DNA from: a virus
Lineage: Duplodnaviria; Caudoviricetes
IMG/VR virus record: IMGVR_UViG_3300005512_000009
Span: 1-64,000 of that record
Reading direction: 5' to 3' (one strand)
Length of the DNA: 64,000 bases
Shown: positions 28,052-36,595 of the stretch, one piece after another
Layout of the letters: every line of letters begins with the position of its first letter
Position numbering within the stretch: position 1 is the stretch's first letter
Notes under the pieces: model-generated
The model's input: only the letters and a program-made list of their open reading frames with translations
Told to the model about the DNA's origin: nothing
Databases searched by the model: none
Program-made: the position numbers and the translations under genes

Positions 28052-28124
28052 ACTATCTTTTTTTACATAATGGTTGGATCTGTACGGCTTTTTTCTTATA
28101 TTATAATATAATTAAGAAGTAGAT

Positions 28125-30182
28125 ATGGGAAAGATAAAAAATTACGGATCCAGCTTTTGGTTAGATGATGACTTTGACACAGACTTCACTTCATGGGATG
28201 ACAGTGGTACAAGGAAAAGAAAGATTGTCGATCATACCAAGCTCGCATCCACTCAGAGAGCCATTAGCAACTTTGTTAATATTGTTACAGGCAAGCAGAT
28301 TCCAGTACGCTTTCAAAGTGCTGATTCAAGTTACACTGATGGAGAAACCGTTACCATCGGTACCAAGCTAGAAGGAAAGAATTTTGACCCTGCAGTAGGG
28401 TTGGCATTGCATGAAGGCTCGCATATTGCTTTCACTGATTTCAATATTCTTAAAAATTGTAATCAAATTGGTAGTGCATTTCATTCAGCAGTTGCAATGC
28501 AAGGTTGTGATCCGGATATGAATATGACTTCAGAGCAGCTCATGATCATCAAAGACATTTTGAATTGGGTTGAAGATAGAAGAATTGATTATCGTGTATA
28601 CACCACAGCTCCAGGATACCGAGTGTATTATGAGGCAATGTATGACAAATACTTCAACGATAAGGTCATTGACAAAGCATTAGAGTCAGGTGAGAAATGT
28701 GAAGAGACATGGGATGATTACCTATTCCATATCATCAACTTTACTAATCCAAATCGACAATTAGATGCATTGAAAGCTCTTCGATCAATTTGGAATGTAG
28801 TTGATCTCAAGAATATCAATCGATTGAAAAACACGCAAGATGCCTTAGTTGTGTCGTGTGAGATTTACAAATTGATTAAAAAGGCAGTAGCAGAAGAAGA
28901 ATCACAGAATCAAGGATCAGGTCAAAGCAATGAAGAACCCCAAGAACAAAATGATTCTCAAGCTTCTGGCTCAGGTCGAGGAGATGATATTGCAGAAGAT
29001 GCTGAATTTGAAGTAGCAGAAGGTGATGGTGCAGGTGGTTCAAGACAATCATCATCTAATTTGAGTCCTATGCAGCAAAGGAAACTTGAGAAAGCAATAC
29101 AAAAGCAACGAGAGTTTTTGAATGATGACGCAAAAAAGACAGGTCGTTTATCTAAGAAAGATGCTCGTGTAGTTGAGACATTGAAAAACTCAGGCACAGA
29201 GTCAAGAGAGGTAAATGCTGGAGGTAGTGAGTCTGCTCCAGTGCCAGTTCAAACCACAGTTATCAAAAAATTGAATCAGGCTGTGATTATGACGCTCGAT
29301 GATATGTTTGATACATACACTGCAGAGAGAGTATTCACACAAGGCATAGATCCATTGAATACAGATAAATGGGGCTTCAGATGTTATCAAGATATGCACA
29401 AGGCAGTAACCGAAGGTATCGTCTTAGGTCGTCAATTGGGTCAAAAGCTTCAAATTAGAAATGAAGAAAGATCATTGAAGAGTACAAGATTGCAAAGTGG
29501 TAAGATCGATAGAAGGTTAGTATCCAGTTTAGGCTTCGGGAATGATTCAGTATTCCATCGCATTGTAACGGATCGATTCAAGAACTTCTTCATCCATATT
29601 TCAATTGATGCATCGGGTTCAATGGGCGGCAAACGTTTTGAAAACGCAATTAAATCTGCGGTAGCAGTTGCACAAGCAGCTTCAATGACAACCGGGATTC
29701 GAGTGCAAATTTCATTGAGAGGTACAACGGGACACTATGATAGTTCCAAATCAACCACGCTGTATGCATATGATTCAGCTCATGACAAAATGAGCAAGAT
29801 CAAAACATTGTTCCCTTGGTTGAAAACCTTTGGAATGACACCAGAAGGTATTGCTTTCGAAAGCATTTACCGAGACATCAAAAAGGATGCAAAAGGAGAT
29901 GAATGTATCTTTATTAATTATTCAGATGGTATGCCAGGCGGTGTTGCTGGGGTTTCATATTGTTGGGATGGAGTTGAGTATACACGCAGAGTTGTTAACA
30001 AAATGAGAGAGATTGGTATCAATATTATTAGTTATTTTATTGATGGATCAGAAGATGGTTATTCAGCAGATTTCTTCCGTAAAATGTATGGACAAGAAGC
30101 AGAGTTTATTGATCCGACATCGCTAACTAAAGTATCAAGATCATTGAATCGCAAGTTTTTAGAGTTAGGAGAGGCAGCATAA
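28125..30182 (+). CDS. vWA-domain protein with N-terminal HExxH (MoxR partner, CobT-like)
   Basis: ALHEGSH, EDRRID, acidic linker, MIDAS IDASGSM, SDGMP. Confidence 0.85.
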   Translation: MGKIKNYGSSFWLDDDFDTDFTSWDDSGTRKRKIVDHTKLASTQRAISNFVNIVTGKQIPVRFQSADSSYTDGETVTIGTKLEGKNFDPAVGLALHEGSHIAFTDFNILKNCNQIGSAFHSAVAMQGCDPDMNMTSEQLMIIKDILNWVEDRRIDYRVYTTAPGYRVYYEAMYDKYFNDKVIDKALESGEKCEETWDDYLFHIINFTNPNRQLDALKALRSIWNVVDLKNINRLKNTQDALVVSCEIYKLIKKAVAEEESQNQGSGQSNEEPQEQNDSQASGSGRGDDIAEDAEFEVAEGDGAGGSRQSSSNLSPMQQRKLEKAIQKQREFLNDDAKKTGRLSKKDARVVETLKNSGTESREVNAGGSESAPVPVQTTVIKKLNQAVIMTLDDMFDTYTAERVFTQGIDPLNTDKWGFRCYQDMHKAVTEGIVLGRQLGQKLQIRNEERSLKSTRLQSGKIDRRLVSSLGFGNDSVFHRIVTDRFKNFFIHISIDASGSMGGKRFENAIKSAVAVAQAASMTTGIRVQISLRGTTGHYDSSKSTTLYAYDSAHDKMSKIKTLFPWLKTFGMTPEGIAFESIYRDIKKDAKGDECIFINYSDGMPGGVAGVSYCWDGVEYTRRVVNKMREIGINIISYFIDGSEDGYSADFFRKMYGQEAEFIDPTSLTKVSRSLNRKFLELGEAA

Positions 30183-30944: not shown

Positions 30945-31319
30945 ATGAATTCGAATGTAGAAGGACCTATATCCAAACGTAATCAACTTACACAGAGACA
31001 GACACAAGCATTGATTAAGTTGTGGGAGAAGTGGGGAAATAATTCTAATTTAAAGCTAAATAGACTAGCATATTCACCATATGGTTTAGATCAGATCGAA
31101 GAACTCTACCCATATATTTCAATAGAACGTAGAGATGATTTACTCGATAAAAAGTTTAAATGGGATTGGTGTATTTCATATCATGAAGAGTATGACGGAC
31201 AAGGAACTCAATTAACTTGGCGTAGCGATTCAAAAGAACCGATGCCGGATTTGATTAAAACGTTTTTACGGAAAGCATATGATAGAGAGTTTATGAGTAT
31301 CCACCAAACTAGTTTATAA
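30945..31319 (+). CDS. Hypothetical protein
   Basis: ORF. Confidence 0.55.
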   Translation: MNSNVEGPISKRNQLTQRQTQALIKLWEKWGNNSNLKLNRLAYSPYGLDQIEELYPYISIERRDDLLDKKFKWDWCISYHEEYDGQGTQLTWRSDSKEPMPDLIKTFLRKAYDREFMSIHQTSL

Positions 31320-31477
31320 AGTTGTAACGGCCCGGCTTATGAAAGCGAAAAGAAAAACCAATGCGAAGAACACGAAGAGACACGCATACGAATAAAGCAA
31401 CGAGTCAATGTATATCGTATGTATATGCGCATACGCTTCGTCCACAGAGAAGAGCAAGACTTGTAATTAATTAATAT

Positions 31478-31690
31478 GGTGTCTCAGGTTCCAGGTGTCC
31501 CTAGTATAACGCACAGAGTGGGCAAAGAGTCAGAAAATCTGAATTATAATTATTAAGCATAGTTCTTGGGTTGAATCGTCCAGGGTTGGGTAGTATTGGA
31601 TGACAGTAAAGGAAACCCCACTCTACCGTGTCTCGCCTAGTTTCCTAGAGCATAATGCTCTTTATTCGGATTACCTGGTGCTTAGGTACC
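31478..31690. ncRNA. Putative ~213-nt structured non-coding RNA
   Basis: Nested long-range stems (31478-31500/31668-31690; 31515-31522/31617-31624) plus several hairpins. Confidence 0.55.
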
Positions 31691-31731
31691 CTAAACGGCC
31701 TAGAATGCAGTATACGCAGTCTATTTGTGTC

Positions 31732-31838
31732 GTATTATTCGTGTATTATTCGTGTATAAATGGCGTATTTTTCGTCCATTCATCGCTCGCTGCGCTCGCT
31801 ACCCGGTACCCGGCACGTATTTTTCGTGTATTTTTCGT
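31732..31838. repeat. Five GTATT(A/T)TTCGT direct repeats
   Basis: Copies at 31732, 31743, 31765, 31817, 31828. Confidence 0.85.
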
Positions 31839-32036
31839 CCATTATTAGTGTGTATGCGTGTCTATACGTAGTGTATATTTGGCGTATGTGTGTATCGAAC
31901 AATGTCTAGTATATATAAGTATTTGGTTTGGTCTTGACGTATAGTACGAGTAAACGTTTCTTCGTATTTTTAATAGGCATTGTCCGGCGATTTGCGGTTG
32001 GATCCGTACGGATTATTTCTTATAATATAGAAAAAG

Positions 32037-32231
32037 ATGTTGAACGTAATATTGTGGATCATAGGGATCGCGATCTTGTTCTATATAGTTGTATACTTGT
32101 TGAGGCCGGCAATAGTAGCGCTTGTCTTGCTTGCCGTGGCGGGATCGATATTCGGCTTCTGGCCAGGAGTCATAGCTGCAGGGATCGGCTTCTTTTGGAT
32201 GTTGTCTGTGCAATTCAATGAAGAGGATTAG
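32037..32231 (+). CDS. Small membrane protein
   Basis: Hydrophobic ORF behind TTGGAT-N17-TATAAT. Confidence 0.6.
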   Translation: MLNVILWIIGIAILFYIVVYLLRPAIVALVLLAVAGSIFGFWPGVIAAGIGFFWMLSVQFNEED

Positions 32232-32280: not shown

Positions 32281-32339
32281 AAATGCTTGACACGCACACA
32301 TATTCTTCTTATATTTATGTAAATTAAAAGATAAGAGCA
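32281..32339 (+). promoter_or_regulatory. Early-type promoter repeat 1
   Basis: TTGACA-N17-TATATT plus TATGTAAATT leader. Confidence 0.85.
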
Positions 32340-33543: not shown

Positions 33544-33711
33544 ATGAATAATAGAGCAATTGACATTCTATTGAACAGAGGCTTAGCAGTTGTCATTCGA
33601 AAAGAATTGATTCAAGCAACGCGCGCAGCTTTGCAAGCAGAAGGCTTTGATACCGAATTCATTACAGATAGTGAAATTTTAGAATTAGTTAAACAAATTA
33701 ACGAGATATGA
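33544..33711 (+). CDS. Small early protein (55 aa)
   Basis: Read manually: MNNRAIDILLNRG...; stop overlaps sigma start. Confidence 0.55.
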   Translation: MNNRAIDILLNRGLAVVIRKELIQATRAALQAEGFDTEFITDSEILELVKQINEI

Positions 33712-34415
33712 ACAAGATATATGTTACCACAGGCGCAGTAGCCACAGAGACCCGGTCAGTAAAGAAGTATATGGCTGACATCAAGAAACCCAAATTACTA
33801 ACCCGAGAGCAGGAGGCAGATGCTACCCGAGATCAATTGATTGAATCCAATCTGCGATTTGTAGTTCAAGTAGCCAAGCAGTACCAGGGAATGGGATTGG
33901 AGCTAGAGGACCTGATAGGGTTCGGCAATGTAGGATTGTTTGAAGCTGCAGAGCGATTCGATCCCACTAGAAAGATCAAGTTCATTACCTTTGCAGTATG
34001 GTATATCCGAGCAGAGATTACCAAGGCATTAAATGATATGGGCCGCACAGTAAGGATCCCATCTCATAGAACAGCCACAGAAGAATATTCAACCATCTCC
34101 ACACAGACAGTGATTGGCGATGACGAAGACTCAGAGACTTATGCGGACCGATTCTTGCCAGCCGAGACGGATGTGAGCCGACAAGACCAAAGAGATCTTA
34201 ATGACATGATAGCAGCCGCATTGGCTCAGCTCAAACCCAAGCAGCGTGATGCAGTAGCATTGTTTTATGGGATCGGTGTAGAGTATCCAAGCTGCATGGA
34301 AGACATTGCTGAGAAGCTCGGCGTGTCAAATGAGAGAGCCAGACAATTGGTTAGAGCAGGCGAGGATGGGTTGAGGAACCTATCAGGATTAGAGATCCTG
34401 CAGCAGTATTTGTAA
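33708..34415 (+). CDS. Sigma-70 family RNA polymerase sigma factor
   Basis: LIESNLRFVVQVAKQY, DLIGFGNVGL, KFITFAVWYIR, region 4 IAEKLGVSNERARQ. Confidence 0.9.
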   Translation: MNKIYVTTGAVATETRSVKKYMADIKKPKLLTREQEADATRDQLIESNLRFVVQVAKQYQGMGLELEDLIGFGNVGLFEAAERFDPTRKIKFITFAVWYIRAEITKALNDMGRTVRIPSHRTATEEYSTISTQTVIGDDEDSETYADRFLPAETDVSRQDQRDLNDMIAAALAQLKPKQRDAVALFYGIGVEYPSCMEDIAEKLGVSNERARQLVRAGEDGLRNLSGLEILQQYL

Positions 34416-36410: not shown

Positions 36411-36595
36411 TTTCGTTAAGCCCCCATGATCCAGGTGCGGGTAGAGCTGGTTATATATGTTTTTCTCGCACGGATAGATTTTTTGCTATATAGGTGGTCT
36501 TTATTGGATATACGTGCGTATATAATATATGTAGCAATATTTATTATTATAACGAGCCTACCAAGCCCAGCGCTGGCAGGACGAACACAAGGAAC

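Follow-up and report, generated by a model that had tools for sequence, protein, structure and literature searches.

A conserved folded element beside phased iterons at the head of the early genes of uncultured marine myoviruses

What is the folded element of 213 nt (31478..31690, + strand) that lies ahead of the early genes of an uncultured phage, and what might it do there? The DNA analysed here, called the window, is the 64-kb stretch at the start of an IMG/VR virus contig of 93.5 kb, whose completeness was estimated at 55%. A preliminary description, made from the sequence of the window alone, had likened the element to 6S RNA because of its size and its stem-bubble-stem layout. It proposed a phage-encoded decoy of RNA polymerase or, failing that, an unclassified non-coding RNA. 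The element is real, conserved and undescribed, and the 6S label is to be dropped.

The + strand holds almost all ORFs of the window. Upstream of the element are 16-17 tRNA genes, a GroEL-like gene, the gene for a 685-aa CobT-like vWA protein and small ORFs. Downstream are small early-type genes, a sigma-70-family gene (33708-34415, ~2 kb from the element) and an AAA ATPase gene. Baseplate genes farther on identified the virus as a myovirus. Comparison with three relatives by blastn (L002, L003 and L082) and an alignment of 16 rows placed the element within a conserved, gene-free block of ~725 nt (31305..32029, + strand). The small genes on both flanks of the block differed from contig to contig, and the block itself was conserved. 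Against cultured phages, the block had no match at the DNA level, and the nearest protein matches were remote. The first strong host-type promoter after the block, found by a consensus scan, was a sigma-70-like site at 32287-32315 that agreed with the consensus at 11 of 12 positions. The block has the last genes on one side and strong early promoters of host type on the other. Farther upstream, before the gene of the 685-aa protein, positions 28072-28125 resembled the promoter-bearing end of a relative's block (L002:10790-10842; 83% over 54 nt), which suggests that a promoter-leader cassette has been reused.

The G+C content of the element (0.45) was higher than that of its surroundings (~0.35), in parallel with the tRNA array. 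All stems listed in the preliminary description were present in the sequence. The + strand folded with a minimum free energy (MFE) of -60.7 kcal/mol (z = -1.40), and 19 of 200 shuffled sequences folded at least as well, so that the difference was not significant; for the - strand, the values were -48.0 kcal/mol and z = -0.55. The preliminary description had named a folding energy no better than that of shuffles as a point against the element, and by this measure it is borderline. The MFE fold of the + strand included the closing stem, the inner stem and the hairpins at RNA positions 53-65 and 170-184. The closing stem by itself was far beyond chance. Its duplex alone amounted to -25.1 kcal/mol, and only 11 of the 42650 27-mers of the window paired equally well with its 5' strand, a count that takes in the true partner of the stem and its own complement.

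As delimited by alignment and pairing analysis, the 5' strand of the closing stem (P1) spans 31478..31500 on the + strand. Its 3' strand (31668..31690, +) was nearly invariant among 16 sequences. A second helix, P2, joins 31511..31520 (+, RNA positions 34-43) with 31619..31631 (+, RNA positions 142-154). Within the 3' strand of P2, the beginning of the element is found a second time: RNA positions 151-157 are the same as 2-8, making an alternative pairing with the 3' end possible. The interior also holds hairpin A (31530..31544, +), hairpin B (31565..31584, +) and a variable segment C (31601..31612, +). They are followed by two small, invariant hairpins (31637..31661, +), at RNA positions 160-171 and 170-184, which overlap by two bases. 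The latter hairpin precedes a U-rich run and resembles a weak terminator. Overall, the interior consists of at least two independent hairpins with long, unpaired A/U-rich linkers between them. A sigma-70 consensus scan, which covers sigma-70-like sites only, gave no site directly upstream of 31478, and neither a promoter nor a clean terminator was found to bound the element. No conserved ORF was found in the element, in line with the earlier remark that it holds no credible one. An 82-aa frame (31600-31848) crosses the iterons, whose number varies in steps of 11 nt.

The collection of homologues, recommended in the preliminary description, was productive: 15 further contigs carry the element. 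They comprise two virus contigs and 13 further metagenome contigs, and together with the window they form the 16 rows of the alignment. The source samples of the contigs were estuarine and coastal. All 15 matched a covariance model built from the element. The closing stem, described earlier as ~20 bp long, proved to be not only a rare duplex but one that is maintained, being paired in 10 distinct full-length sequences. Positions 7-13 of P1 vary between alleles, yet they stay paired through a register shift of one base.

Within the element, variation is organized in cassettes. Two unrelated alleles exist for hairpin A (RNA positions 53-67), and each forms a perfect 5-6 bp stem closed by a 3-nt loop. 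For hairpin B (88-107), three to four alleles were distinguished; they retain the pairs 89-106, 90-105 and 91-104, each of which occurs in up to three pair types. In both hairpins, the sequence has thus been exchanged for an unlike one that is itself self-complementary and folds back into a hairpin. Of the three apical hairpins originally drawn, those at 53-65 and 88-107 were maintained through changes on both sides, while the third (117-131) was broken by changes at positions 119 and 130 and by a 7-nt inversion. This inversion defines the two alleles of segment C (124-135), in which seven bases are exactly inverted; the polymorphism separates L174, L183, L186, L187 and L177 from the window (31601-31607). 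The 5' strand of the bubble, formerly read as a 6S-like feature, itself varies between alleles. Because the alleles of the hairpins and of the segment occur in nearly all combinations, free recombination among them is concluded.

In P2, positions 34-37 always pair with 151-154, with A-U/G-U exchanges, and the pairing of 38-43 with 142-147 is weakly supported. The inner stem of the preliminary description (38-45/140-147) is present and belongs to the MFE fold, but several sequences have uncompensated changes in it, at positions 44-45 and 143-145. The two small 3' hairpins were found where they had been drawn; since they never vary, the comparison is uninformative about them.

For the structure as revised, 94.5% of the alignment cells were standard pairs, versus 31-49% when the partners were slid, and no shuffle reached the observed score of either pairing or covariation. 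All five variable pairs in P1, P2a and a helix formed by 111-114/138-141 stay paired, by A-U/G-U or G-C/G-U exchange. One-sided changes in four helices likewise all keep the pairing through G-U. The closing stem has four to five conserved wobble pairs and zero A-C pairs. Since such wobbles and G-U exchanges pair only on the + strand, the fold is specific to that strand, as had been argued before from the G-U pairs of the window. The + strand also folded better in all 10 distinct members of the clade, by ~4 to 13 kcal/mol. RNAalifold was unstable on three sequences. As judged from sequence comparison, the near clade carries a selected nucleic-acid fold on the + strand, and the pairing in the relatives supports the more cautious of the two earlier proposals, an unclassified structured element.

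Known RNA families did not account for the element. The comparison with Rfam suggested in the preliminary description was done with cmscan on 31200-32100 under permissive filters, and no family matched at E <= 10, the 6S models (RF00013 and others, Rfam 15) included. At gathering thresholds, the window gave tRNAs only and the loci of eight relatives were negative. With 6S RNA, the element has in common its approximate size, a long closing stem with interruptions and the unpaired region that follows. However, 6S RNA is a rod with a single continuous apical helix, whereas the interior of the element is branched into separate hairpins. 6S RNA is an independent gene with its own promoter. The scan for sigma-70-like sites gave none directly upstream of the element, which is fixed beside an iteron array. 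Model match and rod architecture were the two features tested for 6S RNA, and both failed. A Y RNA of the YrlA type, acting with a Ro protein, was considered as well, as such RNAs likewise enclose a structured module with a long stem formed by their 5' and 3' ends. It was rejected: the 93.5-kb contig has no Ro/Rsr protein (TROVE, PF05731), in a search to which control genomes responded, and there was neither an Rfam match nor a T-arm-like module kept across alleles. A miniature inverted-repeat mobile element is unlikely, because the contig has one copy, all relatives have theirs at the same place and no duplicated target is seen. A retron is probably not involved either, as no long ORF lies downstream.

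The element is directly followed by a field of iterons with an 11-nt period (31720..31869, + strand), whose copy number varies between relatives by whole 11-nt units. Start-to-start spacings of the repeats are 11, 11, 11, 63 and 11 nt. An iteron 10-mer has five exact copies, which within the window occur only at 31733-31838, against 0.75 copies expected. A 7-mer core of the iteron is enriched in the block, with one copy inside the element. The element is bracketed by the arms of an 18-nt inverted repeat, the left at 31372..31389 (+) and its partner at 31852-31869, within the iteron field. The iterons are followed by an A/T-rich stretch. A promoter-like site, read from the sequence as TTGGAT, 17 nt and TATAAT (31998..32026, +), closes the block.

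Features of two known arrangements can be recognized in this context. As in iteron-type origins, the repeats have the same orientation, are clustered and helically phased, and occur nowhere else in the window. As at T7-like ends, the genes run one way and the site lies between the last genes and strong early promoters of host type. Among the neighbouring genes, no initiator protein was identified. The GC skew did not turn at the block, either in the window or in a complete related genome (G002), a test of little power because nearly all genes are on one strand, which would mask a turn. The context of the element is a single-copy, cis-acting module at the border of the last and the first genes, in a genome that is read one way.

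More distant relatives, with a 54-62% identical sigma factor, have a syntenic gene-free gap ~2 kb upstream of the sigma gene. Their genomes are ~160 kb long, and the gap contains a core of ~230-280 nt common to more than 20 contigs. A profile of this core matched the window at 31650..31725 (+ strand; E = 0.021 for both strands of the 64 kb) in a colinear and syntenic position. The matched stretch holds a motif common to the distant relatives together with the 3' strand of P1, and the 5' motif of the core is also present where the window element begins. Modest evidence from these sequences thus indicates that the element and the core are homologous. A covariance model of the near clade (R1) was run against 122 loci of relatives and five related genomes, near-complete or complete, and had no match; the distant homology therefore rests on the sequence profile, the shared motifs and synteny. 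The distant relatives have iterons of their own: in the complete genomes G002 and G003, a 9-mer occurs in nine same-strand copies within ~510 nt at the locus and at background level elsewhere. In G002 (158320 nt), one strand carries almost all genes, except for a segment of ~6 kb. The ends of this contig overlap by 127 nt, which shows no more than a circular assembly.

The core of the distant relatives is conserved as primary-sequence motifs, several of which are made up of the half-site found at the flanks of their iterons, too. Conservation mainly as half-site motifs suits protein-binding DNA. RNAalifold found no shared fold among these relatives, and their folding z-scores were near zero. 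A closing pairing can be drawn in every core sequence. When closing stems were swapped, the mean was -15.7 kcal/mol with the phage's own 3' end versus -13.3 kcal/mol with that of another phage, a small advantage that is not convincing. One subgroup has differing but complementary outer triplets, which were read by eye in the alignment because register shifts stood in the way of a column-wise count. In two cores (L101:3721-3950 and L103:2210-2439), the - strand had z-scores of about -3.4 and the + strand folded no better than shuffles, a strand preference opposite to that of the window clade.

A further likeness was noticed at the far edge of the early island. After a G-run tract, positions 36431-36458 hold an 8-mer identical to RNA positions 13-20, followed by GGTTATATAT, a 10-mer otherwise absent from the window. 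Within the distant relatives' core, the same 10-mer forms a conserved inner motif, and G003 and G005 have it again several kb downstream of the core. Judging by these motifs, related signals may lie at both ends of the early island. A pattern scan of viral contigs returned mostly unrelated coding sequence and one ordinary terminator (L159), and a scan of bacterial and archaeal genomes returned no matches.

The reading that we tentatively prefer, with somewhat less than even confidence, is that the element yields a structured transcript which works together with a module serving as replication origin or genome junction. The module, single-copy and non-coding, comprises the folded element, the phased iterons and a promoter, and it lies directly upstream of the early-gene island in a broad clade of uncultured myoviruses of ~160 kb. 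The element would be transcribed by read-through from the upstream genes, and trimming of the transcript at its A/U-rich flanks would leave the form closed by the stem. This RNA could then act locally with the iteron array, either as an RNA primer or R-loop for replication, or as a structured stop or insulator where the last genes meet the first. A local role is preferred to that of a free decoy RNA because the block to which the element is linked is cis-acting, bears iterons and is unique. Conservation, strand-specific pairing, compensating hairpins, iteron uniqueness and synteny are observed at the locus. Against the preferred reading stand the weak z-score, the core of the relatives, for which RNAalifold gave no shared fold, the lack of a bounding promoter or clean terminator, the GC skew without a turn and the failure to find an initiator among the neighbouring genes.

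Much of the same context can be explained at the level of DNA, the main and a serious rival, which we regard as possible, if somewhat unlikely. The block would then be a genome end or concatemer junction, with a short terminal repeat between repeat arrays as in T7, or a packaging site, and the fold would either form in a single-stranded DNA intermediate or be a side effect of inverted binding sites. The nearly uniform gene direction in the window and in G002 (158 kb), the position of the block after the last genes and ahead of strong early promoters of host type, and the repeat arrays beside an element of ~200 nt, as at the T7 left end, would all be in keeping with this. Iteron spacings near multiples of the helical turn are a property of DNA, the core of the relatives consists of sequence motifs without a shared fold, and folded single-stranded DNA also tolerates G-T pairs. 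However, segments that are hypervariable yet always hairpins would be unexpected in double-stranded binding sites, as would a 20-bp stem with 4-5 wobbles and no A-C pairs. The contig ends also argue against a common physical end. Five of the 13 metagenome contigs (L177, L178, L179, L184 and L186) end inside the element, where we estimated ~0.7 such ends. As these ends lie at five different positions (RNA positions 40, 46, 86, 118 and 145) beside polymorphic segments, they are probably assembly breaks caused by strain variation.

If, instead, the RNA were free-standing and acted in trans, for example as a protein sponge or decoy, its stem-closed ends, A/U-rich flanks and raised G+C content would be expected, and the compensating hairpins and the + strand-specific fold would be equally at home. 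A phage sigma factor gene 2 kb downstream would also fit. Such an RNA is nevertheless unlikely: it would be branched and without an Rfam match at E <= 10, it would lack a promoter of its own in the sigma-70-like scan and a partner of the Ro/TROVE type in the contig, and its tight linkage to a single-copy iteron array in all relatives would be unaccounted for. The special case of a 6S-like decoy of RNA polymerase is extremely improbable at best, given the missing Rfam match, the branched interior and a locus bound to iterons. Finally, the fold could be a chance arrangement in conserved regulatory DNA, with no structural function. A z-score of -1.4, equalled in 19 of 200 shuffles, would fit, and most helices are invariant among closely related sequences and hence carry no covariation information. 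The rarity of the closing stem, the replacement of two hairpins by new hairpins and the retained pairing of all five variable pairs (P1, P2a and 111-114/138-141) make chance very unlikely.

Several known replication and end systems resemble the locus in part. T7 genomes have a terminal repeat of ~160 bp and flanking arrays of short repeats, followed by strong early promoters of host type. The window shares with them the one-way genes, the repeat arrays beside an element of ~200 nt and the early host-type promoters directly downstream. T7, however, is a small podovirus with its own RNA polymerase, and its terminal repeat is not known as a strand-specific fold. RNA II and RNA I of ColE1 offer a different parallel. 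There, too, a folded transcript lies beside an origin, which in the window is a candidate one, and hairpins diverge among close relatives yet stay hairpins, in the manner of incompatibility determinants. No antisense promoter was found here, however, ColE1-type origins are without iterons, and there is no homology.

Among large myoviruses, T4 has evenly spaced 12-nt repeats at oriE, and transcripts at oriF and oriG serve as RNA primers in R-loops (PMC3016281). The likeness lies in a cluster of short direct repeats, evenly spaced and confined to a single site of a large myovirus genome, in the vicinity of early promoters and in a transcript with a presumed part in initiation. The two differ in that they have no sequence similarity, and no stem-closed fold of 213 nt is known from T4 origins. 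The role of the T4 iterons is itself unproven, and a replication start at the window block is a proposal. In staphylococcal K-like phages, 12-bp inverted repeats mark the borders of the long terminal repeats (PMC6022877). Strings of seven bases in the closing stem (31491-31497 and 31673-31679) are common to these repeats, which is probably a coincidence.

A more specific version of the preferred reading may be put forward as a speculation, which we consider decidedly doubtful. The element would represent a novel RNA class of phages, physically coupled to the iteron array. As a stem-closed transcript, this RNA would prime or gate either replication or the processing of ends, at the genome junction of a widespread clade of marine myoviruses. 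Its hypervariable, freely recombining hairpins would be determinants of specificity between co-infecting relatives, like the loops of plasmid copy-control RNAs.

For uncultured marine phages, origins, genome ends and their partner RNAs are almost unknown. The locus described here is a compact, single-copy landmark ahead of the early genes, and its sequence makes it recognizable in dozens of contigs. If the block is a genome end, it would allow circularly assembled genomes to be oriented correctly. If the fold proves to belong to an RNA that works with the iterons, the locus would offer a new case of RNA-assisted control of replication or genome ends in a large virulent phage, and the independently assorting hairpin alleles would then be a natural experiment in specificity.
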